Origin: an uncultured Planctomycetia bacterium
GTDB taxonomy: Bacteria > Omnitrophota > Gorgyraeia > CAYVEO01
DNA: 64,000 nucleotides
Assembly: GCA_964449965.1 (NCBI GenBank)
Contig: CAYVEO010000003.1
Coordinates: forward strand, 1,052-65,051
Direction of reading: 5' to 3'
This document shows, one piece after another, positions 47,620 through 62,923 of this stretch. The first letter of the stretch is position 1, and the number at the start of each line of letters is the position of its first letter. A model generated the notes under the pieces. That model did not search any database, was not told the DNA's origin, and saw only the letters and a list, made by a program, of their open reading frames with translations. The translations under genes were made by a program, and so were the position numbers.

Positions 47620-48834
47620 TTACATATTTACAATATCTGACATCTTGAATATTGGCATAAACATGGCGATTACAATAGAGCCTATAACGATGCCGAGAAA
47701 AGCGATAATCAAAGGCTCTATCATAGAAGTAAGTCCTGCTACGGCACTATCCACCTGTTCATCATAGAAATCTGATATCTTTTCCAGCATCTTTTCCAGT
47801 TCCCCTGTCTGCTCACCTACGGATATCATCCTCACCACCATCGGCGGGAATACGCCGCTTTTGGCAAGCGGGGTCGCTATATTTTCGCCTTCACGAATAC
47901 TTGCACGGACGTCAGTTACTGCATTCTCTACCACCTTATTCCCGGCAGTCTTTCCTACTATCTCTAATGCCGCCAATATGGATACGCCGCTTTTTATCAA
48001 TGTTGAAAGCGTCCTCGTAAATTTGCTAACTGCAACCTTTTTGAACAATATCCCGAAAACAGGCAGGTCAAGCATCAACTGGTCATATTTCAATCTGCCT
48101 TTCTCTGTCCTGACATATCTTGAAATAAGAAATCCCAGAACCACTGCCACACCCAATAATAGCAGGAAGTAACTTCTCAATGCATCGCTTATTGTAATAA
48201 GGACAAGCGTAGGGGCAGGCAATTTAGCTCCAAATCCTGCAAAGATTTCTTTAAAAGTGGGTATAACCTTAAGCAATAATATTAATGTAATCAGAAACGC
48301 CATACATATTACCACTGCAGGATAGACAAGGGCAGAGCTAATCTTTCGCTGGAGTGCACTTGATTTTTCTAAATAACCGGCAAGCCTGTCCATGATATCA
48401 TCCAGCATACCGCTGGATTCACCTGCCTTGACCATATTTATAAACAACTGTGAAAAGACCTTTGGGTGCCGGCCAATAGCCTCTGAAAGCGTACTCCCTG
48501 TCTCTACGTCATTCCTCACCCTGGATACAATATTTCTGAACTCCTTATGCTCTATCTGTTCACTTAATATGTCTAACCCCTGCACCAGAGGTATCCCTGC
48601 GTCTATCATCGTGGCAAGCTGCCTGGCAAATACAACCAGGTCATCTACCTTTATTTTCTTCTTAACGGCAAATGAAATACCCTTCTTTTTTTTCTCTACA
48701 CTCTCTTCAATTGAGATAATGGTGAGTCCTTTTTTACGAATCGCATCTACCACGAAAGCCTGCCCCTGGGCCTCTAAAGTAGCCTGGACAGTCTTTCCGG
48801 TTATGTCCTTTGCCTTATATGTATATACTGGCAT
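47620..48834 (-). CDS. pilC: Type IV pilus platform protein PilC (GspF family).
   Basis: Two T2SSF repeats ('GSTLSEAIGRHPKVFSQLFINMVKAGESSG' and 'GENIATPLAKSGVFPPMVVRMISVGEQTGELE'). Confidence 0.85.
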   Translation of the reverse strand: MPVYTYKAKDITGKTVQATLEAQGQAFVVDAIRKKGLTIISIEESVEKKKKGISFAVKKKIKVDDLVVFARQLATMIDAGIPLVQGLDILSEQIEHKEFRNIVSRVRNDVETGSTLSEAIGRHPKVFSQLFINMVKAGESSGMLDDIMDRLAGYLEKSSALQRKISSALVYPAVVICMAFLITLILLLKVIPTFKEIFAGFGAKLPAPTLVLITISDALRSYFLLLLGVAVVLGFLISRYVRTEKGRLKYDQLMLDLPVFGILFKKVAVSKFTRTLSTLIKSGVSILAALEIVGKTAGNKVVENAVTDVRASIREGENIATPLAKSGVFPPMVVRMISVGEQTGELEKMLEKISDFYDEQVDSAVAGLTSMIEPLIIAFLGIVIGSIVIAMFMPIFKMSDIVNM

Positions 48835-48840
48835 ATTCTG

Positions 48841-50544
48841 TTACTCCTCTGAGGTTATGCGCAATATCTCTTCCAGCGTGGTAAGCCCGGAGACAAATTT
48901 CTCTACCGCATCATCACGCAGCGTCTTCATACCATGCTGGACAGCATAGGTTTTGAGTTCATGGCTTGAAGAACGATTTATAATCATGTCCCTTATGGCA
49001 TCATCCGGGACAAAAATCTCCGAGGCCCCCATACGTCCATAGTAACCTGTGAGCCTGCATTGAGGACATCCCCTGCCATGATAGAACGCTCTATTCTTTC
49101 CGTCTCCTATTCCTAATTCCTTCAATTCTGATTCAGGAATATCAGCAGGTTCTTTGCAATTCGGGCAAATCTTCCTGCACAGCCTCTGTGCCGCAACCAT
49201 TATTACCGAGGATGCGATAAGGAATGGTTCTATACCCATATCTACCAGCCTGGTCACTGCCCCGGGGGCATCATTGGTATGCAGCGTACTGAATACCAAC
49301 TGTCCAGTCAGAGACGCCTTGATGGCAATATCAGCCGTTTCAAAATCCCTTATCTCCCCAACTAAGATTATATCAGGACTCTGCCTTAAGATAGACCTTA
49401 AACCATTTGCAAACGTGAGTCCTATCTCCTGCTGGACCTGCACCTGGGTAATACCCTCTACCAGATATTCCACCGGGTCCTCAACCGTCATTATATTTCT
49501 GTCCTGTGTATTTAATTGATTAATTATAGAATAGAGTGTGGTGGACTTGCCGCTGCCGGTGGGACCTGTTATGAGTATCATACCATACGGTTTTGCTATA
49601 GCCTCTTTAAATAGTTTAAGTGAATTTGGAGAGAACCCAAGCCTATCAAGCCCTATGGACAAACTTGACTTATCAAGCGCCCTTAAGACCACCTTGCCGC
49701 CATGCGTTATGGGAAGAACCGAGACCCTGAAATCCACCTCCCTCTCTTCTAATTTTACCTTAAACCTGCCGTCCTGCGGCAGGCGTGCCTCAGTAATGTC
49801 CATACCAGACATAATTTTTAGCCTCGCCAGGATTGCGTTCTGGTGAGTCTTTGGCAATACAAATGCCTCCTGCAATGCACCGTCAACCCTGTAACGTATC
49901 CTGAGTTTATTTTCATACGGCTCAATATGTATATCGCTTGCCCTTCTTTTCAGTGACTCTGATAATAATAAGTCAACCATCTTTATTATCGGAGCCTTCT
50001 GGCTTTCTTTCTCAACCTCTCCTACTTCAAACCTCTCCTCCTCAACAGTGCTTACCACATATTCTTCATTAGACTCTTTTAAAATGGTTTCAAGAGTTCC
50101 TGCCTCAGAGACAAAACATTTATCTATGGCTTTAAGTATCTCTTTGTCAGTGCTTATTACGGGTTTTATCTCGTAATTTGTCAAAAGCCTGATATCGTCT
50201 ATCGCTAATATGTTAAGCGGGTCGGCTGTTGCAACCGTAATAATATTACCTAATCTGGAAATCGGAATGAGCCGGTAATGCCTTGCCATGCGTTCAGGCA
50301 CAATCCTTGCAACATTCTGGTCTATCTTATACCTTGAAAGGTTGATAATGGGTATATCAGTCTCCTGGCTCAACAATGCCATAAGGTCATTTTCAGTAAT
50401 AGAACCCTGCTCTATGAGGAGCCTGCTCAAATTCCCCCCGCCCCTTTTCTTCTGCTCTTCAATGGCTTTATCTAATTGTTCCTTCGTAACCAGATTGCTC
50501 TCTATCAATAGTTCATTAAGTTTTTCCTTGATAGACTTTACCAT
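48841..50544 (-). CDS. pilB: Type IV pilus assembly ATPase PilB (GspE family).
   Basis: T2SSE_N domain, Walker A 'GPTGSGKSTTL', Asp/His boxes and tetracysteine 'CPNCK...CPQC'. Confidence 0.9.
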   Translation of the reverse strand: MVKSIKEKLNELLIESNLVTKEQLDKAIEEQKKRGGGNLSRLLIEQGSITENDLMALLSQETDIPIINLSRYKIDQNVARIVPERMARHYRLIPISRLGNIITVATADPLNILAIDDIRLLTNYEIKPVISTDKEILKAIDKCFVSEAGTLETILKESNEEYVVSTVEEERFEVGEVEKESQKAPIIKMVDLLLSESLKRRASDIHIEPYENKLRIRYRVDGALQEAFVLPKTHQNAILARLKIMSGMDITEARLPQDGRFKVKLEEREVDFRVSVLPITHGGKVVLRALDKSSLSIGLDRLGFSPNSLKLFKEAIAKPYGMILITGPTGSGKSTTLYSIINQLNTQDRNIMTVEDPVEYLVEGITQVQVQQEIGLTFANGLRSILRQSPDIILVGEIRDFETADIAIKASLTGQLVFSTLHTNDAPGAVTRLVDMGIEPFLIASSVIMVAAQRLCRKICPNCKEPADIPESELKELGIGDGKNRAFYHGRGCPQCRLTGYYGRMGASEIFVPDDAIRDMIINRSSSHELKTYAVQHGMKTLRDDAVEKFVSGLTTLEEILRITSEE

Positions 50545-51162
50545 TTATTCACCATATACCATGTTTCCGCCAAGATGGCCAAGGGTTATCCCGATTGGCA
50601 CGAGCAGAAGGACGCCAAGGATATAAATCCATCTGTAAAGGTGAGGATCTATTACTACACCGGGATTGAGGGTCCGCCAGATTAGACAACTAATGCCAAT
50701 CACGAGGAACGCTATAGAAAGACATATCTTGGAACGAATGATGAAGTATCTGCGTTTACTGAAGCGTCTAAACCAGTCATAGAGCCCTGAACCAAGCCCG
50801 AGAAATGAGGTCCCTACACCGCCTATGAGAGAATAATATGCACCCTGCTCAAATAATGGATTGCCTGTTAAAAGATAGATGAATATCAACAGAATAGAGG
50901 CAGGGACAAGGCTTAAAGGAAAACTGGCTGATACAGGATGAAGCCGCATCCTTAATTGATGACGATACGTCTCCATATCCACGACCACAGTAAAGATAAA
51001 CCCTGCCGATTCCACAACCTGCAAAACTGCCCCGCAGACAGGGCATACGACGAACCCGCCTTTTTCTATATCTGCCTGGGTCATCTTGAAATGGCACACC
51101 GGGCAGACAAATATTCTGCCATACAACCGCTTTCTAATATTATCAATGATTCTCTTTATCAT
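50545..51162 (-). CDS. Zinc-ribbon + DUF2231-like polytopic membrane protein.
   Basis: 'CPVCHF...CPVCGA', then '[12 protein letters not shown]' and four TM helices. Paralogous to 52416-52940. Confidence 0.45.
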
Positions 51163-52304
51163 CTTCCTCTCAATAACTCCGCAGTAATAATCGTCCTCTG
51201 TATCTGGCTTGTCCCTTCGTATATCTGATAAATCTTCGCATCACGCATCAATTTTTCCACAGGATATTCCTGTGAATAACCATACCCGCCAAAACACTGG
51301 ACTGCATCCGTAGTAACGCGCATAACCATATCTGCTGCAAATGCCTTGGCAAACGCCGCCTGCTTTGTATTCTTTATCCCATGGTCAATAAGCCATGCGG
51401 CATGCCATACAAGAAACCGCGCAGCGTCTATGTCCATTGCCATATCTGCTATCTTAAAACTTATACCCTCGTATGAAAGTATACTCCTGCCAAAAGCCTT
51501 CCTCTTTCTGGAATAATTTAAGGCGTGTTCCATTGCAGTGCGCGCCAGCCCTACCGCAGCAGCCGAGACCATTGGCCTGGTATGGTCAAAGGCAGCCATT
51601 GCAATTCTGAATCCCTCGCCTTCCTTTCCCAAAAGGTTCTCTTTTGCCACCTGGACATCCTCAAACGTAACACGCACGGTATTGGATGCATGCTGACCCA
51701 TATTCTGTTCCTTTGGTCCTCTCACAATCCCAGGCGTATCTGCCGGGACTATAAATCCACTCAGTGACTGATACCCTTTACCAGGGTCTGTATTCGCTAA
51801 TACAAAATACCAACTGGCGACCCCGCCATCAGTAATCCACCACTTGGTCCCGTTCAAGACGTAGTCATCCCCTGTCTTTTTTGCCGAGGTCTGTATCCTC
51901 GCCACGTCTGAACCTGCCTCAGGCTCTGTTACGGCATAGGCAGCGAATCCAAAATTTTTACATAAGGTAGTGAGGAACCTCTTCTTCTGGTCATCATTGC
52001 CAGCCACTATAATAGGTGCCTCTGCCAGGCTGTTTGCCTCCATGGCTGTGCCTATGCCGGTACAACCCGCACCAATCTCCTCGGCAACTATGCATCCCTC
52101 CAGAACTCCAAGACCCAATCCGCCGTATTCCTTTGGGACATGGGTGTTCATCAACCCGAGTTCCCATGCCTTGCGGCATATATCCCTCGGAAACTCACCA
52201 GTCTTATCATGATAGGCAGCCTTTGGGGCAATTTCATTTTTTGCAAATTCACGTGCCTTTTCCTGAAGTTTAAGCTGTTCCGGACTCAGACTAAAATCAA
52301 TCAT
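51159..52304 (-). CDS. Acyl-CoA dehydrogenase (short/medium-chain type).
   Basis: ACAD N-terminal, middle and C-terminal domains; '[13 protein letters not shown]' near the C-terminus. Confidence 0.85.
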
Positions 52305-52940: not shown

Positions 52941-53024
52941 GTAACCAATTATATCACAAATTCTTATAAGTGCAAGGAATTTTTTCTGTGCTTACCCGTA
53001 ACATCCTTTCTCTGATTCCGCTTT

Positions 53025-53273
53025 TCATGACGCCCATTTCATCTGCAGTTTCCGATGATGCATGGCACAATCACGCAAGTAGAGATTGATCAGATTTTGA
53101 TAGGGTAATCCCGACTCAGTAGATAGTGCCTTGAAATATGTAACCGTGTCCTTATCAAGTCGGATCGTAATGGGTTGTCTCAAGTATTTGATATAAGGGT
53201 TCTTTTGACCCTTCATCCGTGCAAAGTCATAGTGCTTTCTCATAGCCTCATCTCCAATAATTGTTTTGTTCAT
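53025..53273 (-). CDS. brnA: BrnA-type antitoxin (CopG/RHH-like).
   Basis: 'HYDFARMKGQKNPY...ITIRLDKDTVTYFK'. Overlaps brnT by 26 bp. Confidence 0.7.
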   Translation of the reverse strand: MNKTIIGDEAMRKHYDFARMKGQKNPYIKYLRQPITIRLDKDTVTYFKALSTESGLPYQNLINLYLRDCAMHHRKLQMKWAS

Positions 53274-53529
53274 CTTTGTCTGCTTTTCTGGCCGATATTA
53301 TCCGGATAATGGCTTCCCGCTTGCGATAAGAATGACATACAACAATTACCCTCAGCTTGTAGCTCATACCTAGCATGATGAAGCGATCCTCATCGGTGGA
53401 ATGATCTGGATCAAAGTATTGATTAGCGTTTTCATCAAAGAATACAGTTTGTGCTTCTTCAAAAGAGATGCCGTGTTTTCGTATATTTTTTCGGTTCTTG
53501 TCTTCATCCCATTCAAATTGGAGACTCAA
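53248..53529 (-). CDS. brnT: BrnT-type ribonuclease toxin (DUF497). It appears to use a TTG start.
   Basis: 'FEWDEDKNRKNIRKHGISFEEAQTVFFD' signature. Confidence 0.75.
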   Translation of the reverse strand: MSLQFEWDEDKNRKNIRKHGISFEEAQTVFFDENANQYFDPDHSTDEDRFIMLGMSYKLRVIVVCHSYRKREAIIRIISARKADKDEQNNYWR

Positions 53530-53557
53530 TGTAAGTCCCTTTCATTTTACACCCACA

Positions 53558-53585
53558 GTATATACGTAATTGCCTTCCTTGTCAA
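53558..53585 (-). promoter_or_regulatory. σ70 promoter TTGACA-17-TATACT for brnTA.
   Basis: Minus strand reads 'cacTTGACAaggaaggcaattacgtaTATACTgtgggtg', ~25 nt upstream of the TTG start. Confidence 0.5.
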
Positions 53586-53669
53586 GTGAAACCTCAAATT
53601 TCAGTATATCACGAATTCACCTGCCAAAAAAGCGCAGATTTTTGACCGTATGGGATGAGATGTTATGTT

Positions 53670-54167
53670 TTAATCTTTATTTATTTCTTTTAATTTACCT
53701 TCTGCCCACATCCAATATGGGCCTGTATATTCAAATGCAACACTTTTACTTTCTTCAATTAATATTTGTTTTGTGGTGAGTTTACCAAAAACATCTCCAT
53801 AAATACCCTTCCATATTTTTGGTAAAGCAAAAATTTCTAATTTATGAGATCCTGTATCTATGATAATTCTTGTACTGCTGTATTTAAATATTGTAATTAT
53901 ATCTCTATCATCAATTTTAATGCCATAATTATTAATTGCAATCTGCTGACTGGGTGGAATAGCATAGATTAGAAGAATGCCTGTTTTAGGGGTCGTGGAT
54001 AAATCAAAATTGTAATTTTGTTTCCCCCCTTCTAATTTTTTCTTTTCTAACCCAGATTCAAGCGTTGCACAGCCAACAAGAAAAATTAAGGGTAATAGAA
54101 TAATTATTTTAATATTTTTAGACATAACGAGAATCTCATCTGTACGGCCTGTCCGTATCTGCCCCAC
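53670..54167 (-). CDS. Lipoprotein, function unknown. The likely start is the internal ATG near 54125.
   Basis: 'LLPLIFLVGC' lipobox. AT-rich. Confidence 0.45.
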   Translation of the reverse strand: MGQIRTGRTDEILVMSKNIKIIILLPLIFLVGCATLESGLEKKKLEGGKQNYNFDLSTTPKTGILLIYAIPPSQQIAINNYGIKIDDRDIITIFKYSSTRIIIDTGSHKLEIFALPKIWKGIYGDVFGKLTTKQILIEESKSVAFEYTGPYWMWAEGKLKEINKD

Positions 54168-54179
54168 GCAATGGCTGAG

Positions 54180-54785
54180 TTATTTTTTAATCTCACTTAC
54201 TTTTCGCACCATGTCACTGAAATCACCAAAAGCATCCTTGGTCTTTTCGTGCTTGATCAGGAAGATTTGTAACTCTTTCGGTTTTCCTGTGAGCAAGAGA
54301 CCATCGTCTATTTTCTCGTGCTGAATAGCATCAGGATGATCTTGCAGGAATTTCTTGATCCAATCATAGTTGAGCATCGCCATCCGCAGAGTCGGTTCGA
54401 TTTGTTCAATCCGTATAAATGTGTGGATTGGTAATAGGTGCCCTTTGTAGAAATCATTCTCTTTTAGATCAGGGTTCTCCGGAAAGAGGTCAAGAAACAG
54501 GCGTCCTTCTACTTTCACCAGGTGGACTACGAACTTCCCCTCTTTCCCATCGGCATCTATATAAAGAAGGCGGTATTCTTTCTCATTGCTCTTCGTGAAA
54601 ATCCATCTTTCCTCAAAGTTTTTTTCTGACCACTCGCCCACAATGGCGGGATCAAAAACCAAGTCCTCGTCTGTGTAAAGCGGATGGAGAGAAGGAACGC
54701 ACCCTACAAGAGCAACCAGAACTACAACGCCAACTAACCAAAAGCACTTGTTCACTATCTTGCTCCTCGTTTCAATACCCAACAT
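54180..54785 (-). CDS. Lipoprotein, function unknown.
   Basis: 'VVLVALVGC' lipobox. Confidence 0.45.
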   Translation of the reverse strand: MLGIETRSKIVNKCFWLVGVVVLVALVGCVPSLHPLYTDEDLVFDPAIVGEWSEKNFEERWIFTKSNEKEYRLLYIDADGKEGKFVVHLVKVEGRLFLDLFPENPDLKENDFYKGHLLPIHTFIRIEQIEPTLRMAMLNYDWIKKFLQDHPDAIQHEKIDDGLLLTGKPKELQIFLIKHEKTKDAFGDFSDMVRKVSEIKK

Positions 54786-54850
54786 TGCGGTTAAGAGGCT
54801 GGCAAAGGAGCGTAGCGGATTTGCCAGTCCTTCTTGAACCGATTGGGCAC

Positions 54851-56314
54851 TTATTTTGCTAATCTTTTAATGTTCATTCGGTATGGCGCTAATACGGTTT
54901 CTCTTTCGTCTTCTAGGTTCAAAAAATTTATTTTAAGGCGGTATCTTGGTGTAATTAACGCCTTAGAGAGTTCTTCTTTCAATTCATCCTTTTTTGTTTT
55001 TCTTAGGAAGTCATCTTTTTCTGGATCAAAATACTCATTTCCTGAGTCATCATAAAGAACATTGTCTCCCTCGAAGAAGACACCGTCTATTGCTTTATTG
55101 TCTTTTTCAAATTCGATACAAGACACATCAATACTAATGCCTCTGGCAGATGAAGGGATATAAAAGAGGTTTTTAAAATACGGTTTAAGAGCTTGCTGAA
55201 TGAATTTAAATGACTCTTTGAATTGATCGGATTCTTCAATTTGAAAAACATTGTCAATCATGTCTGCTTTTGTTCGTGTCCTAAAACTTCCTGTTGAGTC
55301 AAAATAAACCTCAAACAATAATCCATTAAGCAAATGAAAACTTATACTTTCGTTTGTTTTGCTGAGATTGCCTTGCAAATTATCCAAATACAACACTGCC
55401 TTTTGAGCAGAGCCACATGCTGCTTGATATATGTTTCTTCCCAAAACAAATATTTCATCTTTAGTTAATTGTTCTAGATTGCTTTGATTAATCTTGGAGA
55501 TTGATGGATTCTGTACGTACCAATTATAGCTCTTGAGTCCATCAATTATTTCACGTGCAATATCAGATGAGCGTGGCTTAAAGCCGGAATCTGCTAATGC
55601 AGTTTCACTGTATTCTGGCAACAATTCTTCGGTGACAAAAGAATAGTTGAAATAAAAATCACCCATAAGAGAAGTGTGCTCCCATGATATTTGGTGACCG
55701 CGAGTAGATGAGCTTAAGGTATTTCTTACCCTCTTAAACAAGTCTTCAATAGTAATGTCTGGCGTGGACACATGCTTGAGGAACGCATCTGTGTAAGCTC
55801 CGTTTTGGCCATCACCATCGTATGCAACTTGACCTGGGGATGTAGCGTATCCGATTATCATTCCTTTTGGGGCATATACTGGTGCTAGTCCTCTTGAATC
55901 TGCTCCACGCCATCTGCGCTCGTATGGGTTATTTCGGCACGCATCTAACATAATAATATTCGTCTTATTTGTGCCTCTTTCCATAATTTCTATCACTTTA
56001 TCCAAAGGTAGCGAAGAATACTTGGCGTCAATTTCTTTATCGAAATTAGTATCTATAGCGGTTAGGTAATTTTTTCCCTCTATCTGCATCCCATGACCTG
56101 CAAAAAAGAAAAGAGCAACTTCACTATCATTAAGATGTGAAGAAAACTCATTTAGCCCTTCTTCCATTCTCTTATTTGTCGCATCTGTTTGTTTAAATGT
56201 CTTAAAGCCAAGTTTGACCAATCTTTCTTGGACAGCATTAGCATCATTCACGGGATTCTTTAGGGGTGAGCCCGGGTAAGTAGAGTTACCAATTATTAGG
56301 ACGATTTTATTCAT
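54851..56314 (-). CDS. Caspase-like (peptidase C14) protein with a ~250-aa C-terminal region of unknown function.
   Basis: Catalytic dyad contexts 'VALFFFAGHGMQ' (His) and 'NIIMLDACRNNP' (Cys). No signal peptide. The C-terminal half has no recognisable motif. Confidence 0.65.
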   Translation of the reverse strand: MNKIVLIIGNSTYPGSPLKNPVNDANAVQERLVKLGFKTFKQTDATNKRMEEGLNEFSSHLNDSEVALFFFAGHGMQIEGKNYLTAIDTNFDKEIDAKYSSLPLDKVIEIMERGTNKTNIIMLDACRNNPYERRWRGADSRGLAPVYAPKGMIIGYATSPGQVAYDGDGQNGAYTDAFLKHVSTPDITIEDLFKRVRNTLSSSTRGHQISWEHTSLMGDFYFNYSFVTEELLPEYSETALADSGFKPRSSDIAREIIDGLKSYNWYVQNPSISKINQSNLEQLTKDEIFVLGRNIYQAACGSAQKAVLYLDNLQGNLSKTNESISFHLLNGLLFEVYFDSTGSFRTRTKADMIDNVFQIEESDQFKESFKFIQQALKPYFKNLFYIPSSARGISIDVSCIEFEKDNKAIDGVFFEGDNVLYDDSGNEYFDPEKDDFLRKTKKDELKEELSKALITPRYRLKINFLNLEDERETVLAPYRMNIKRLAK

Positions 56315-56386
56315 AATATTTATCCACCCAACTGAAATCAGCGGCTCACCGTAGGCGAGTCCACTGGAGTGAGTGGTTAGACATAT

Positions 56387-56983
56387 TTATTTCCTTCTAA
56401 AAAGATACTTAAATTTTTTTATTAAATAATTGAAATTTAAGCCTATGCCGAAAAGATTTGGCTTCAACTCAAGAGCATCAATATTGTTATTTGAAAGACC
56501 TACTAAAGCTTTGATACGAACAACAACATTAGAGATAGCCCTGTAATCTATGATTACGCTTTTCGTTTCTTCGTATATCGGATCTATTAAACAATGCCTC
56601 AAAGATTCATCCTTTAATTCGACTTGTATGAAATCTGTCTTAAAAACAGTGCATTTTCTTTCTTCATTTTGACTACTATCGAATAGTTGGCCCAGCGCTT
56701 CCACATGTCGTTGTTCAATGGATAGCGGTAATTCCTTAATTAGTCTATTGAGTTCATCCGAATAACGTTTAAACAAATCAACAAAATAAATAATATACCC
56801 TTCAATTTGATCTGGATGATATAATTTATCTCGATGACCCTTTACTTGAGAAAGCAAAGATTCTAATTTTGATATGGCATGGTTGGTATTTTCCCGCCAT
56901 TCACTTAAATGTTTAATAATATCTTCTATACCTACGCCAGTGTAGTCTGTCATACCAGAAATTATTGATCTTTTTCTACCCAT
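56387..56983 (-). CDS. Hypothetical 198-aa protein co-oriented with and 72 bp upstream of the caspase-like gene.
   Basis: Strongly AT-rich codon usage. No recognisable motif. Confidence 0.4.
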   Translation of the reverse strand: MGRKRSIISGMTDYTGVGIEDIIKHLSEWRENTNHAISKLESLLSQVKGHRDKLYHPDQIEGYIIYFVDLFKRYSDELNRLIKELPLSIEQRHVEALGQLFDSSQNEERKCTVFKTDFIQVELKDESLRHCLIDPIYEETKSVIIDYRAISNVVVRIKALVGLSNNNIDALELKPNLFGIGLNFNYLIKKFKYLFRRK

Positions 56984-57066
56984 TTTTATAATTTATTTCT
57001 GCCTAACGGTATGCAGTTCAGCCGCACGATTTAACATGTCGGCTGCAACCGTTGGTTAGGCGAAGT

Positions 57067-57954
57067 TTAAATTTTAACATAATCAAACAATTCTAATACG
57101 TTTTGAGAATTTTCTGTCTTAATATTTCGTTTTCCATATTTACCAGTAAATTCACCTTTTTCTTTTCTCTCCTTAAATGTTTTTTCAACAACGTGCTTTG
57201 CAATTTCTTCATTTGCACACTTAATCTCATTTCTATAATTTTTCAGTCTTTCTTCAGCGAGTTTGACGTATTCATCAGAAATTTCAATTCCTATGAAAGC
57301 ATGCCCCAATATTTTTGCAGATACTAATGTTGTCCCGCTTCCACAATAAGGGTCAATAATTACCCCTTTTTTCTCATCCATAATAGAATAAATTACCCTA
57401 ACAGGTAATGCCAAAGGAAAAGGCGCAGGATGGGTATTTTTCTTTTCGGGTGGAAAACGCCAGATTGAAGTCTGTAATGCATGTTTAGGTTTTAATTCTT
57501 CACCTATTAATTCCTTTCCTTTTGGTTTGTAAAGCCAATATACCCTTTCTTCTACCTGCCAGAATCTCCACCCTCTAATATTTGCTGCGATCATTCTATT
57601 CCAGATTATCTCTTGTCTGATTGTCCATTTTGTTTTTCTTAGCCAATCCATAGGATGAAACATTTCTCCTCTTTCCCACCTGATTTTATGATTGTAAAAG
57701 AAAGAACCATCAGGTCTTGTAATTCTGTAAACTTCATTTAAAACATCTATTTGACTTTTTTGATATGAATCTTCTGGGAATTTATCTGTAGCCCCTGAAT
57801 ATTTTACATTTGTAACAAGCCAACCCTTCTTATTCTCACCTTTATTATAAGGTGGAGATGTTACTCCCAAGTCAAGAATTCCATCTGGTAAGGTTTTCAA
57901 AATAGTTAAAGCATCTCCTTTAACTATTTTATTCAAATATTCATTCTCACTCAT
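57067..57954 (-). CDS. DNA methyltransferase, β-class (N4-cytosine or N6-adenine) with an SPPY motif.
   Basis: Motif IV 'LGVTSPPYNKG' lies N-terminal to motif I 'DPYCGSGTTLVSA', the circular permutation typical of β-class amino-MTases. Confidence 0.75.
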   Translation of the reverse strand: MSENEYLNKIVKGDALTILKTLPDGILDLGVTSPPYNKGENKKGWLVTNVKYSGATDKFPEDSYQKSQIDVLNEVYRITRPDGSFFYNHKIRWERGEMFHPMDWLRKTKWTIRQEIIWNRMIAANIRGWRFWQVEERVYWLYKPKGKELIGEELKPKHALQTSIWRFPPEKKNTHPAPFPLALPVRVIYSIMDEKKGVIIDPYCGSGTTLVSAKILGHAFIGIEISDEYVKLAEERLKNYRNEIKCANEEIAKHVVEKTFKERKEKGEFTGKYGKRNIKTENSQNVLELFDYVKI

Positions 57955-58660
57955 TTGCCTTTCCCTCTAAGAATTCATAAAAAACTTTTGATATATATGG
58001 TTCGTATTTTGTTAATTCATCTTTGTTTAAAAGATATACAATTCTTAAATTTGGACTTTTAATAAAATCCTTGTAATCAAAATCGGCACTTCTTAGAAAT
58101 TGCCCTTCTGTGCTTTTGCTTCCTTTTAATTTCCTCTGCCATTTTTGTATTTTCATTTCCAAATTTTTCACAAAGTCTGAAAAGGTAAAAGGGAACTCAA
58201 TAATATAAATAAGTTTGCCATCAACGAATCCACTTACTAACATATTTAAATCTTTTTCATGTTTGTCCTTCTCTAATCTTAAGGAAGTATAGTCTGTAAA
58301 ATTTCCACCGCCATTTAATTTTGCGGGACTTGATTTTCTTTCACCTCTTTTATATTTTTCAGACTCTTCGGTATTAAAATTTTTAGGTTTGGCTTCACAT
58401 TTTAGGGTTTTTCCTGAAATAAATGTATCTTGCTTAAAACCATTGTAACCTATTTTACTTTCTTTATGTTCATATCCCGCTAAAGTAACTGTTATAAATT
58501 CTCTGATTGTTGATGAATTTTTATCATTTATATACATCGTTAATAAATCAACAAGCGTTCCAATAAGCGTATCTTTTGATTTGCCTATTAAATAACTACT
58601 CAATTCTTTATGACTCCCTGTTGAATATATTTTTATAACATTTGCCAATTCTTGATTCAT
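57947..58660 (-). CDS. Putative type II restriction endonuclease (PD-(D/E)XK candidate). The start is trimmed to the ATG at 58660, which has RBS 'ggaagagg'.
   Basis: Overlaps the MTase start by 8 bp (operon). Possible 'D-x10-EAK' catalytic motif (FKQDTFISGKTLKCEAK). Very AT-rich. Confidence 0.45.
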   Translation of the reverse strand: MNQELANVIKIYSTGSHKELSSYLIGKSKDTLIGTLVDLLTMYINDKNSSTIREFITVTLAGYEHKESKIGYNGFKQDTFISGKTLKCEAKPKNFNTEESEKYKRGERKSSPAKLNGGGNFTDYTSLRLEKDKHEKDLNMLVSGFVDGKLIYIIEFPFTFSDFVKNLEMKIQKWQRKLKGSKSTEGQFLRSADFDYKDFIKSPNLRIVYLLNKDELTKYEPYISKVFYEFLEGKANE

Positions 58661-58814
58661 GTTTTCGCCTCTTCCGAATTTTAAATTCCGCCTAACATGT
58701 ATTAGACTACCGAACAAAATTTGCAAACACTGTAAGTTTTGCAGTCTAACTACTACACATATTTAAACCAATTAAAAAGTTGCGAAGCAGTTAAGAAAAT
58801 ACTGATGCTTGATG

Positions 58815-59093
58815 TTATGCAGCCTTCAGTTCGCGTACGTGGAGAATTTCCTTTCCTCTCATTGCCCTGACATCGCCAGTACTGAGAGTCACAACAGCAG
58901 CAGTTCCCCCCTCACCCGTCACAAACTCGACTTCAAGTGCCTTGCCACTCCGATAGCAGTGTACAACGGCTCCGATGTCGCCAGCCTCCAACCCATATTC
59001 AGGTGCATTCCGAGTTAACACAACCGCATCCAATTCTTTTATCATAATACCATCCGTGAGGCCGGTTGGATTCATCAGCTTGTTAGACATCAC
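58815..59093 (-). CDS. DUF4926-family small protein.
   Basis: 'LDAVVLTRNAPEYGLEAGDIGAVVHCYRSGKALEVEF'. Overlaps the hicA stop by 4 bp. Confidence 0.5.
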   Translation of the reverse strand: MMSNKLMNPTGLTDGIMIKELDAVVLTRNAPEYGLEAGDIGAVVHCYRSGKALEVEFVTGEGGTAAVVTLSTGDVRAMRGKEILHVRELKAA

Positions 59094-59302
59094 AAATCTT
59101 CAGGCTGGAGACCCGTGTGTTTTGCAATGCGAGCCAACATCCGAGGACCAATTTCTTCGCGATCATGAAAGGCAAAAACGAAATCAGGATGCCCTTCCCT
59201 TGCAAGTATCTGGTGAGACCCTGAGATCCTCTTGACCTTCCATCCTATACGCTCCAATGCCTTTAGGACTTGCCGGGCTCGCGTACTGGACCAGTGGCTC
59301 AT
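59090..59302 (-). CDS. hicA: HicA-family mRNA interferase toxin. The start is trimmed to the internal ATG at 59302.
   Basis: 'ALERIGWKVKRISGSHQIL...FAFHDREEIGPRMLARIAK' (YcfA/HicA). The upstream part of the track ORF overlaps hicB in another frame and is not coding. Confidence 0.7.
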   Translation of the reverse strand: MSHWSSTRARQVLKALERIGWKVKRISGSHQILAREGHPDFVFAFHDREEIGPRMLARIAKHTGLQPEDL

Positions 59303-59505
59303 GCCGCTTTGAACAAGATCGTAATGGGAGCCGCAAGTTGCTCGCCCTTTTCTATTCTTTCCGCTATCACCCTCAAGGCAAGAGCCTCCGCTTGTCCCAA
59401 GGCTTCCTCTCGGCTTCCTCCGTACTTCATTACGCCGGGGAGTTCTATGATCTCGGCGATCCAACGACCATCGGTTTCCTGTTCAGTTTCAATTGTGAAC
59501 TGCAT
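59299..59505 (-). CDS. hicB: HicB-like antitoxin (UPF0150).
   Basis: 'MQFTIETEQETDGRWIAEIIELPGVMKYGGSREEALGQAE'. ATGA overlap with hicA. Confidence 0.65.
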   Translation of the reverse strand: MQFTIETEQETDGRWIAEIIELPGVMKYGGSREEALGQAEALALRVIAERIEKGEQLAAPITILFKAA

Positions 59506-59783: not shown

Positions 59784-60014
59784 ATGCAGGACTTTGAGAA
59801 GTTAGGGGTGTTTTATTTAGGGCGGTTGTATGACATGAAGGCAGAAGGTCAAAGGGAGGGATTACTCCTGTACGATTCCAATGATCTTGTTACGCATCTG
59901 GAGACTATTAACCTCATGCCTACTAAGACTAATATTTCAGTACAGATTACCTCACTAACCTGGATTCCCAACTGGCAGGACGCGCAGGCAAAAATAACGC
60001 CTGCATGGAAATAA
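59784..60014 (+). CDS. Small protein (76 aa), translationally coupled to putA.
   Basis: Strong SD 'gaaagagggg' 7 nt before the ATG. Its stop overlaps the putA ATG by 10 nt. No recognisable motif. Confidence 0.4.
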   Translation: MQDFEKLGVFYLGRLYDMKAEGQREGLLLYDSNDLVTHLETINLMPTKTNISVQITSLTWIPNWQDAQAKITPAWK

Positions 60015-62923
60015 CCATGACCCAACGAGACTATAAGATTGAAGACCTGACAAAGGCAATCGGATACGAGATTTTTTCTCTGCTAAAAAAAGAAGTCCCT
60101 GCCTTCTTTGAGCGAGAACATTGGGAAACACAGGTCATGCAGTGGTGCATGGGCGATGATGACCTCAAGGTCAGAATCTTGAGATTTATAGATGTATTCC
60201 CCTCTATTAAAAGACCCGGACAGGTTGTGCGGCATCTGAGAGAATATTTCCCCGGTGCTGATATGCGTATTCCAAAGGCACTCCGCATCGGAATGGCGTG
60301 GACGAGGCCAACGATTATCACATCACGTGCCGTTACCTCTACTACTCAATGGCTCATTCAACGCATAGCGAGAAAATTTATCGCAGGTTCAACATTAGAA
60401 GAGGTCATCCCTGTCCTTGAACGTCTTAAGGTAGAAGGTGCCTCAGCAACCTTAGACGTCCTCGGGGAAGCAACAACGAGTGAAAAAGAGGCTGATGTGT
60501 ATATGTCACGCTATATAGATTTAATAAAGGGTCTTGGCACATCAAACGTATCATTAAAACTTTCTTCCCTTTACTCCAGATTTAACCCTCAAGACCAGGA
60601 AGGAAGTTCTTCCCATGTAAAACAACGTCTTAAGGAAATCTTCCGTGCAGCCAGGACATGCGGCACTTTCGCTAACATAGACATGGAACAATATAAATAC
60701 AGGGATTTAACTACCAGGATATTCAGAGAACTACTTATGGAAAAAGAGTTTTATGATTTTAAGGATGCAGGTATTGTCGTCCAGGCATATCTCAAAGATT
60801 CTGAAGAATCTATTCTGGATTTGATTCGCTGGGCAAGGGAGCGGAAGACCCCTATTACGATACGTCTTGTAAAGGGTGCATACTGGGACTGGGAGATTAT
60901 AAATGCAAGATTGGAAAATTGGCAAGTGCCGGTCTGGACAAATAAATGGGAAACCGACGCCGCTTTTGAAAGATTGACAGACATCCTCCTTAAAAATCAT
61001 GATGCTGTCCAGACTGCCATCGCAAGCCATAACGTTCGCAGTATCGCCCATGCCATGGCTTTCGCAAAATCAATGGGATTGGATAAGATGGCACCTGAAT
61101 TTCAAATGCTTTATGGCATGGCAGAGCCTGAAAAAAAGGCGATTATCTCTTTAGGATGGAATCTGCGTATCTATACCCCTTATGGAGAACTTATACCTGG
61201 CATAGCCTATCTTGTGAGGCGGATTCTTGAAAATACATCAAATGAGTCTTTTTTAAGACAGAGTTTCATCCGGGATTTACCAGAAGAGGAACTTTTAAAA
61301 AGCCCTGAAGAGATAGCACATCTTACACCGCAGGCGAAGAAAGAAGTGACAGGTATTAAGGTCACGGTTCCTGAATTTGAGAACGAACCTGATACTGATT
61401 TTTCTAAAGACAAGAATAGGACAAAGATGAAAGAGGTGATTAAGCGAGTCCAGAGACAGTTTGGCGCCTCATATATTCTGAAGGGTGCTAAAGGGCAATT
61501 TTTCTCAACTAACCCCGCACGTCCGAGCGAGGTCCTTGCCACCTTTTCCTTAGCCGAACCACATCATGCTGATGAGGCGATTAAGTCTGCAGAGGGTGCC
61601 TTCCTGACATGGAGGAACCTCGCGCCTGAGAAGAGACAGCGTCTGCTATACCGTGCAGCAGATATTATGCAGGAGGAACGTTTTGATTTGGCTGCCTGGG
61701 AGATTTTTGAAACAGGCAAGACATGGGAAGAGGCAGATGCAGATGTCAGCGAGGCAATAGATTATCTTAAGTATTACGGTCTTGAAGCCGTTAGGTTAGG
61801 TTCACCTCAGTTTTTAGGAAAGAGGCAGGGTGAGGTCAACGAATATAGTTATCAGCCTCGCGGTGTAGGTCTTGTCATTTCACCATGGAATTTCCCTCTT
61901 GCAATACTTACAGGCATGGTATCTGCATCTATTGCGGCAGGCAATTGTGTCATACTAAAACCATCAATGCTGTCAACCCTTGTTGCTGAAAAATTCATCT
62001 CATGTTTAAAAAGGGCAGGCATACCCGACGGTGTGGTCAACCTCATTCCGGGAGAGGGGCACACTGTAGGAGAGTATATGGTTTCTCATCCTGACATAAG
62101 TTTTATCGCCTTCACAGGCTCAATGGAAGCTGGACTGCGCATCAATTCTATTGCAGCGAATACTGCTAAAGGACAGGAATCCGTGAAAAGGGTCATAGCT
62201 GAAATGGGGGGTAAGAACGCTATAATCATTGATGAGGATGCTGATTTGGATGAGGCGGTAGTAGGGACTATTCATTCTGCCTTTGGCTACCAGGGGCAGA
62301 AATGCTCTGCTGCATCCAGGATTATAGTGCTTGAAGATGTATACGATAGGTTTATCAGCCGGCTGGTTGAATCTGCCAAGGCAATAAAGATTGGATATCC
62401 TGAAGACCCAGGGACACATATGGGGCCGCTTATAAGCGCTGATGCAAAAAATCGTGTTCTTGGATATATAAAAGAGGGAAAGGAAAATTTTACACTACTA
62501 TTAGAAACGAATGTGGATTCAATAGAAGGCGGCGGCCATTTTGCAGGCCCTGCAATCTTTGCAGATGTTCCTCACAATTCCCGTATGGCACAGGAGGAAA
62601 TTTTCGGACCTGTTCTGGCAGTCTTTAAGGTTAAGGATTTTAGAGAGGCAATACGCTTATTAAATGATACACGCTTTGCACTCACAGGCGGGCTTTACTC
62701 AAGGAGCCCGGTAAACATAGAACTTGCAAAAAAGGAACTTCAGGCAGGCAATTTTTATATAAACAGAAAGATAACCGGGGCAAAGGTGGGACGCCAGCCG
62801 TTCGGTGGATTTAAGATGTCAGGGGTAGGGTCAAAAGCCGGTGGACATGATTATCTACTGCAGTTTGTCCTCCCGCGCACAGTAACAGAGAACACTATCC
62901 GGCATGGCTTCGCCCCAATATGA
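60005..62923 (+). CDS. putA: Bifunctional proline dehydrogenase / Δ1-pyrroline-5-carboxylate dehydrogenase (PutA-like, without DNA-binding domain).
   Basis: N-terminal PRODH barrel region. The C-terminal ALDH has 'EMGGKNAIIIDEDAD' (catalytic Glu) and 'FGYQGQKCSAASRIIV' (catalytic Cys). Confidence 0.85.
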   Translation: MEITMTQRDYKIEDLTKAIGYEIFSLLKKEVPAFFEREHWETQVMQWCMGDDDLKVRILRFIDVFPSIKRPGQVVRHLREYFPGADMRIPKALRIGMAWTRPTIITSRAVTSTTQWLIQRIARKFIAGSTLEEVIPVLERLKVEGASATLDVLGEATTSEKEADVYMSRYIDLIKGLGTSNVSLKLSSLYSRFNPQDQEGSSSHVKQRLKEIFRAARTCGTFANIDMEQYKYRDLTTRIFRELLMEKEFYDFKDAGIVVQAYLKDSEESILDLIRWARERKTPITIRLVKGAYWDWEIINARLENWQVPVWTNKWETDAAFERLTDILLKNHDAVQTAIASHNVRSIAHAMAFAKSMGLDKMAPEFQMLYGMAEPEKKAIISLGWNLRIYTPYGELIPGIAYLVRRILENTSNESFLRQSFIRDLPEEELLKSPEEIAHLTPQAKKEVTGIKVTVPEFENEPDTDFSKDKNRTKMKEVIKRVQRQFGASYILKGAKGQFFSTNPARPSEVLATFSLAEPHHADEAIKSAEGAFLTWRNLAPEKRQRLLYRAADIMQEERFDLAAWEIFETGKTWEEADADVSEAIDYLKYYGLEAVRLGSPQFLGKRQGEVNEYSYQPRGVGLVISPWNFPLAILTGMVSASIAAGNCVILKPSMLSTLVAEKFISCLKRAGIPDGVVNLIPGEGHTVGEYMVSHPDISFIAFTGSMEAGLRINSIAANTAKGQESVKRVIAEMGGKNAIIIDEDADLDEAVVGTIHSAFGYQGQKCSAASRIIVLEDVYDRFISRLVESAKAIKIGYPEDPGTHMGPLISADAKNRVLGYIKEGKENFTLLLETNVDSIEGGGHFAGPAIFADVPHNSRMAQEEIFGPVLAVFKVKDFREAIRLLNDTRFALTGGLYSRSPVNIELAKKELQAGNFYINRKITGAKVGRQPFGGFKMSGVGSKAGGHDYLLQFVLPRTVTENTIRHGFAPI

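Follow-up and report, generated by a model that had tools for sequence, protein, structure and literature searches.

Introduction

In type IV Thoeris, a short TIR protein is paired in an operon with a caspase-like protease (Rousset et al., preprint 10.1101/2024.10.24.620036). The present report concerns a gene encoding a caspase-like protease with a long C-terminal extension, located in a 64,000-nucleotide stretch of DNA (hereafter the window) from an uncultured Planctomycetia bacterium (positions 1,052 to 65,051 of contig CAYVEO010000003.1, assembly GCA_964449965.1). The C-terminal half of its product is a portable constant module of a previously unannotated family, the members of which carry interchangeable N-terminal effectors. 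A preliminary description of the window had proposed that this gene and an adjacent one, encoding a 198-aa protein, form a candidate undescribed defence system; our analysis supports a genuine caspase-like protease with an uncharacterized C-terminal module, set in an island of toxin-antitoxin (TA) and restriction-modification (R-M) genes, the module behaving as the constant part of a conflict-type family with interchangeable toxic effectors; the two-gene unit is not supported.

Activation by N7-cyclic ADP-ribose (N7-cADPR) is one of the characteristics of type IV Thoeris. The family described here resembles it in the likely role of its protease as a promiscuous executioner and in its location near defence genes and on mobile elements. 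It differs in having no adjacent TIR gene, either in the window or in any of the ~80 loci inspected; when TIR does occur in the family it is an alternative N-terminal domain and not a partner. A constant regulatory domain combined with interchangeable toxic enzymes, presumably activated by oligomerization, is also seen in TIR-SAVED, TIR-STING and the SIR2-SLOG protein ThsA. To our knowledge, fusions of this type are always encoded beside a signal synthase, whereas the caspase-module gene has no linked synthase and the fold of its module matches no known nucleotide-sensor fold.

Two further comparisons are of relevance. The TIR protein SpbK and the Avs/STAND proteins, abortive-infection sensors that directly recognize proteins of the phage, likewise combine an effector and a sensor in a single gene, with TIR, protease and nuclease effectors recurring among them; unlike these, the caspase-module protein has no NTPase domain, and its module is about 260 aa long, with a most conserved part that is invariant rather than diversifying. 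MALT1 paracaspase and the bacterial orthocaspases (C14) share the His/Cys dyad and gave the best sequence matches among solved structures, but the homology is confined to the catalytic domain and the accessory domains are unrelated. In another group of caspase-like proteases, the substrate is a bacterial gasdermin encoded next to the protease; no match to the gasdermin family was obtained among the neighbours in the window (the adjacent genes encode a helical bundle and two lipoproteins), nor does the module family have a recurrent neighbour.

Results

The caspase gene and its C-terminal module

The gene and its domains are located in the window as follows.

54851..56314, minus strand: caspase gene with C-terminal domain, a single-gene unit encoding 487 aa (open reading frame [ORF] list; NCBI MBI4242468.1, from a Planctomycetota metagenome-assembled genome [MAG])
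55652..56308, minus strand: peptidase C14 (caspase-like) effector domain, residues 3-221, with His74/Cys126 (Pfam)
55169..55606, minus strand: helical subdomain of the C-terminal module, residues ~237-382 (AlphaFold2 model and invariance over 68 proteins)
54884..55138, minus strand: second subdomain of the module, β-rich and fast-evolving, residues ~393-477 (AlphaFold2 secondary structure)

Residues 3-221 matched PF00656 (Peptidase_C14) with E=7.5e-39 and 134 bits, against a cutoff of 21.4. The catalytic dyad is intact, with His74 in 'FFFAGHG' and Cys126 in 'LDACRN', as had been recognized in the preliminary description; the catalytic cysteine given there as C258 was an indexing error, residue 258 being Asp. 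The dyad was retained in 49 of the 51 caspase-type members of the family. A signal peptide is absent, as had also been noted, since the N-terminus forms the first strand of the caspase fold. The nearest solved sequences were those of MALT1 paracaspase (E~1e-11), the sole PDB sequence matches of the 487-aa protein. The score against the EACC1-associated caspases (NCBIfam NF047832) was 56.2 bits, well under the cutoff of 140, which places the protein outside that family. In PADLOC-DB v2, the protease domain alone matched PDLC02987, a generic model named 'caspase', over positions 6-130 of its 453, and no full-length match of the protein to any system protein model was obtained. Residues ~228-487 had no match in Pfam, NCBIfam, PADLOC or PDB, in agreement with the earlier remark that the C-terminal half matched nothing recognized.

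When residues 226-487 were used as the query, 37 proteins were found to carry the same ~260 residues behind Peptidase_C14, TIR_2, PIN_8, RelA_SpoT or unassigned N-termini. In an exhaustive profile search, the number of clusters (50% identity) was 908 at E<=1e-3 and 648 at E<=1e-10; 158 relatives were present in species-representative genomes. They were distributed over Proteobacteria, Acidobacteriota, Bacillota, Bacteroidota, Nitrospirota and Chloroflexota, with the addition of one archaeal fragment. The latter, the sole archaeal match, is a 146-aa piece of the module in a Methanotrichaceae archaeon MAG (locus L014, 2045-2485), and probably represents a transferred copy that has since decayed. 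In the 68 genomic members of full length, the N-terminal effector was a caspase in 51, PIN_8 in 10 and TIR in 7, and in every member the module was at the C-terminus. A literature search on the module, on PIN_8 in defence and on the signature motifs found no description, which does not disprove the existence of one.

An AlphaFold2 model of the module, built from a 20-sequence alignment (pLDDT 92, pTM 0.90), consists of a helical subdomain and, behind it, a β-rich one; no meaningful relative was detected by a PDB profile search, among PDB folds or in a viral structure library. Twelve positions are invariant in the 68 proteins (D242, Q268, F289, G292, R293, N294, Q297, G331, E335, F338, R345 and P387), which are otherwise 20-45% identical, and three more (W265, Y296 and K349) are each retained in 67 of the 68. 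With the exception of P387, these residues all belong to the helical subdomain, where they occupy three helices and the loop behind them. Mean pairwise identity was 41% overall for the helical subdomain (46% within caspase-type members) and 22% for the β subdomain (26%), as compared to 60% for the protease domain within caspase-type members. The RelA/SpoT member (P0032) stops directly behind the helical subdomain, which indicates that this subdomain is the core of the module.

Boundaries of the unit

Three neighbouring genes lie on the same strand as the caspase gene.

56387..56983, minus strand: 198-aa gene, encoding a four-helix bundle (residues ~19-165) and a conserved C-terminal tail (~170-198) (predicted model)
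54180-54785 and 53670-54167, minus strand: two lipobox proteins (ORF list)

The 198-aa ORF is co-directional with the caspase gene and lies 72 bp upstream of it, as first described. The co-directional arrangement with short spacers (72, 65 and 12 bp), the common low-GC island and the lack of annotation of both the caspase and the 198-aa protein could all be taken to suggest that the caspase and the 198-aa protein, possibly together with the two downstream lipoproteins (53670-54785), make up one multi-gene defence system, as had been proposed. We nevertheless regard such a system as extremely improbable. When 85 loci were searched with a hidden Markov model (HMM) for the 198-aa protein and with the two lipoproteins, the single locus matched was L006, a contig of 4.8 kb that is identical to the window; all three proteins were missing even from the relatives that are 75-84% identical. 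The pair is thus not kept as a unit, and homologues of the 198-aa protein were never found beside a caspase. Hairpins stand between the genes, and the caspase and 198-aa proteins each have a module-swapping pattern of their own.

The nearest relatives, from other phyla, have the caspase ORF alone in common with the window. By blastn, a Nitrospirales MAG (L007) was 84% identical in nucleotide sequence over window positions 56321-54800, a Herpetosiphon MAG of the Chloroflexota (L008) 78% identical over 56314-54843, and a Desulfobacteraceae MAG (L009) 77% identical; in all three the similarity was limited to the caspase ORF and about 50 bp. Nucleotide identities of 77-84% across phyla point to recent transfer of the single caspase gene. 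The genes for the 198-aa protein and the two lipoproteins are best explained as neighbours that share the acquired island with the caspase gene but are unrelated to it.

A partner was also sought among the neighbours of other family members. BLAST clustering of flanking ORFs revealed none that recurs, the biggest cluster being found in 8 of ~80 loci at variable positions. When 50 co-directional neighbours in tight linkage were scanned with Pfam, no TIR and no recurrent family emerged, and the 148 nearest ORFs of 42 loci contained 167 different families, again without TIR, the commonest being integrase with 4 occurrences. In a TIR/short-N-terminus sub-clade (L054, L077 and L081) three adjacent genes are shared upstream of the module gene; they encode proteins of about 250-300, 430-460 and 250-300 aa, with junctions of 0 to -3 bp in two of the loci. 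Some branches of the family may have acquired operon partners.

An operon resembling type IV Thoeris was encountered on the Proteus penneri plasmid pPp47 (NZ_MG516912.1; L090, 3577-4945), where a gene for a 137-aa TIR protein is followed after 8 bp by one for a 315-aa caspase. The plasmid is conjugative and confers resistance, and the two genes, directly downstream of TnsD/TnsE, are carried on it as cargo of Tn7. This caspase, a single exemplar chosen by operon architecture, displayed 28% identity to that of the window over residues 3-129 only (BLASTP), and its much shorter C-terminal region gave an hhalign probability of 0.2% against the module profile. Membership of the window gene in type IV Thoeris was rejected because it has no TIR neighbour and because the C-terminal region of the TIR-adjacent caspase is unrelated to the module.

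The same data bear on the possibility that the caspase-module protein is an orphan effector of nucleotide signalling. The module would in that case be a second-messenger receptor, functionally similar to SAVED, STING, SLOG, Macro or the C-terminal domain of the type IV Thoeris caspase, and its activating signal would come in trans from an enzyme of the host, a different defence system or the phage. Effectors of the cyclic oligonucleotide-based antiphage signalling system (CBASS), of Thoeris and of Pycsar combine a constant receptor with swapped effectors, and the combination of one module with TIR, protease and nuclease domains follows this pattern; the set of invariant polar residues is also suggestive of a conserved small ligand. 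We consider this explanation improbable, as no TIR, cyclase or CD-NTase recurs beside family members in the ~80 loci, the caspase from pPp47 has the protease domain alone in common with ours, and the fold of the module is unlike those of known nucleotide sensors.

The 198-aa neighbour

The 198-aa protein had been described as an orphan; a profile search yielded 137 relatives, mostly stand-alone metagenome proteins of ~200 aa (relatives P0187-P0299). The predicted structure (pLDDT 82.5) is all-helical, with a four-helix bundle that leads through a disordered linker into a short helix at the C-terminus, and contains no TIR. Its fold matches were generic, and PADLOC-DB v2 held no match for it. 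The tail carries the motif ALELKPN-FG-G-NLN..I.K, with basic residues, over ~30 residues. Six relatives retain the bundle but have, in place of the tail, a TIR domain, a GGDEF domain (with or without a Cas10-palm-like match) or a cytidine-deaminase domain; conversely, the tail alone, at 54-68% identity, was found on unrelated N-terminal domains, including that of an AAA protein.

The tail motif occurs once per locus and always at the extreme C-terminus. An amyloid-signalling pair, with one motif at the C-terminus of an effector and another at the N-terminus of an NLR protein, was considered for it, and this single, C-terminal occurrence does not support a paired arrangement. Homologues of the 198-aa protein were found near RES, HicAB, integrases, IS91, a Mor/primase region and housekeeping genes, and near a caspase in no case; the metagenome scan for the family yielded short contigs only. 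No member was found in plasmid and phage collections. The module swapping of its own, together with contexts devoid of a caspase, indicates that the 198-aa gene is a second, independent modular gene.

Carriers and genomic context

The module gene was found on ten distinct plasmids and in several other mobile settings: a Pectobacterium element with an integrase and a relaxase, a TraH/TraG region in Vibrio cholerae, a Loktanella plasmid on which it adjoins an R-M system, and sites flanked by insertion sequences (IS). It was not found in sequenced phages, which is neutral with respect to function. On the IncFII plasmids of Edwardsiella anguillarum (L113, 9 records) the annotation is limited to a 130-aa 'caspase family protein', with no annotated coding sequence in the module region; the gene lies there between IS5 and IS110 transposases and is probably disrupted, a pseudogene. 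Defence-type domains (AbiJ_NTD3, HEPN_LA2681, AAA_15/21 with an OLD-like TOPRIM, RES and ResIII) were frequent among the 50 tightly linked neighbours of family members, as were integrases.

The presence on plasmids, integrative elements and IS-flanked sites, the TA modules surrounding the gene in the window and the weak enrichment of known defence genes in a crude sample would also fit a selfish stabilization or toxin module of mobile elements. An additional scenario is a non-immune role in regulated cell death or proteolysis, whether housekeeping or developmental, of the kind fulfilled by orthocaspases. We judge this pair of explanations unlikely. No conserved cognate antitoxin gene was found beside family members, the replacement of the protease by TIR, PIN or RelA/SpoT on a constant module disfavours a specific proteolytic housekeeping function, and the distribution is patchy, with near-identical copies across phyla.

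In the window, the GC content is 0.31-0.39 over ~53000-58800, compared to 0.42-0.49 in the flanks, in line with the AT-rich stretch originally reported. Within this island, Pfam confirmed BrnT, BrnA, an N6/N4 methylase, HicA and DUF4926. The island holds BrnTA, the methylase and HicAB, as first described, but the type II R-M pair is only half verified: its presumed restriction partner, a 259-aa ORF at 57947-58726 (minus strand) that overlaps the start of the methylase, matched no family except phrog_3210 (E=5.7e-17, function not assigned), with no match in Pfam, PADLOC or PDB. At 58815-59505 (minus strand), genes for a HicB-like protein (59299-59505), HicA (to 59090) and a DUF4926 protein (58815-59093) overlap or abut; the DUF4926 protein may belong to the HicAB module as its third member. 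The island proteins correspond to NCBI entries from a Planctomycetota groundwater MAG and form singleton clusters.

Judging by the translations, type IV pilus or type II secretion genes (PilC-like and PilB/GspE-like; 47620-50544, minus strand) lie just outside the island, and an acyl-CoA dehydrogenase-like ORF (51159-52304) and a PutA-like ORF (60005-62923) provide housekeeping flanks. Read in this way, the island appears to be an insertion between housekeeping genes, marked by these PilC/PilB-, acyl-CoA dehydrogenase- and PutA-like ORFs. No tRNA was found in the window and no repeats were found bounding the island, and a scan of the island for promoters and terminators yielded matches at chance level.

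Intergenic hairpins

Three of the island spacers fold into hairpins.

56984..57066, minus strand: spacer between the methylase and 198-aa genes, with a long imperfect hairpin and attC-like ends (57001-57061; GCCTAAC...GTTAGGC) (DNA fold, R-box match 7/7)
56315..56386, minus strand: spacer separating the caspase gene from the 198-aa gene; moderate hairpin, restricted to the sense strand (z = -2.2 sense, -0.2 other)
54786..54850, minus strand: spacer behind the caspase stop codon, with a stable hairpin (z = -3.9 and -3.5)

For the first spacer, the DNA fold z was -4.6 on the sense strand and -3.6 on the other; the attC-like element at 57001-57061 is a 61-nt imperfect palindrome with perfect RYYYAAC/GTTRRRY ends, an unpaired spacer and bulges. 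The second contains a weak terminator-like match at 56351-56339. The third is partly inside the stretch common to L007 (by blastn, to 54800), in which the palindrome is degenerate. The four other island spacers did not fold into a long imperfect hairpin. These structures are consistent with the caspase and 198-aa genes being separate units.

Integron cassettes carry TA and defence genes, and a cassette array in the form of an attC cluster without an integrase, in which each gene is an independent promoterless cassette, was considered for the island. The genes of the island all share one strand, the palindrome at 57001-57061 has perfect attC-type ends, two neighbouring spacers likewise form significant hairpins, and the unit shared with L007 consists of the ORF and a short 3' element. 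Conversely, attC-like matches across the window did not exceed those in shuffled sequences (4 vs 1.9 +/- 1.5), the hairpin 3' of the caspase gene has the wrong R-box polarity, the R boxes in the spacer between the 198-aa and caspase genes pair poorly, and no tyrosine recombinase or integrase was found in the window. None of 85 homologue loci had an attC-like site beside the focal gene. With a single canonical-looking site, not significant window-wide, the cassette array is retained as a side reading of low probability.

Discussion

We consider it on balance probable that the caspase gene is a self-contained, horizontally mobile, single-gene candidate sensor-effector that encodes an anti-phage protein of the abortive-infection type. 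This view builds on the observed architecture, effector swapping, mobility, intact dyad and absence of a conserved partner. The C-terminal module would be the sensing and regulatory part of the protein. In its helical subdomain, D242, W265, Q268, R293, N294, Y296, Q297, E335, R345 and K349 are predicted to form an invariant polar surface or pocket, which may bind a conserved ligand or mediate a self-association coupled to activation, while the specificity for the trigger may derive from the fast-evolving β subdomain. Upon the trigger, most likely phage infection, the protein would dimerize or oligomerize, a step that caspase-like, TIR and many PIN and RelA/SpoT toxin domains commonly require for their activation. 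The activated caspase would then cleave cellular proteins broadly and cause arrest of the cell, that is, abortive infection. In type IV Thoeris, bacterial immunity already offers an example of a caspase-like protease that acts as a promiscuous executioner (preprint 10.1101/2024.10.24.620036).

Several observations weigh against this view. None of the known defence models in PADLOC matches the module. If phage proteins, which evolve fast, were sensed directly, an invariant pocket would be unusual; it would better suit a small-molecule or host-factor ligand, with no signal-producing enzyme linked to the gene. An addiction or toxin role on mobile elements predicts the same genomic signature. Finally, PADLOC matches were sparse among the 148 nearest neighbours, so that enrichment of known defence genes is anecdotal in this sample; for this reason our claim is of a mobile, variable and sometimes defence-rich context, and not of a statistical enrichment.

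A more far-reaching proposal, which we put forward tentatively and hold to be somewhat less likely than the sensor-effector role itself, is that the module represents a hitherto unrecognized class of sensory or regulatory domain in immunity. In such a single-gene system, an invariant Asp/Trp/Gln/Arg-Asn/Tyr-Gln/Glu/Arg/Lys pocket would switch on caspase-like, TIR, PIN or RelA/SpoT effectors at a conserved infection cue for which no maker is linked; the 198-aa protein would be a second one-gene system, with the 'LELKPN-FG-G-NLN' tail as an output element exchangeable with TIR, GGDEF or deaminase domains.

The juxtaposition of the two genes bears on the delimitation and cloning of candidate systems, as apparent gene pairs in defence islands can be independent single-gene modules placed side by side. 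The predicted invariant pocket offers a precise handle for mutagenesis and ligand discovery, for which the swapped effectors are natural controls. If the module is a sensor, it would be a new receptor domain for bacterial immunity, operating without a linked signal synthase or an NTPase, and would place four classes of suicide effectors, a caspase-like executioner included, under one receptor.

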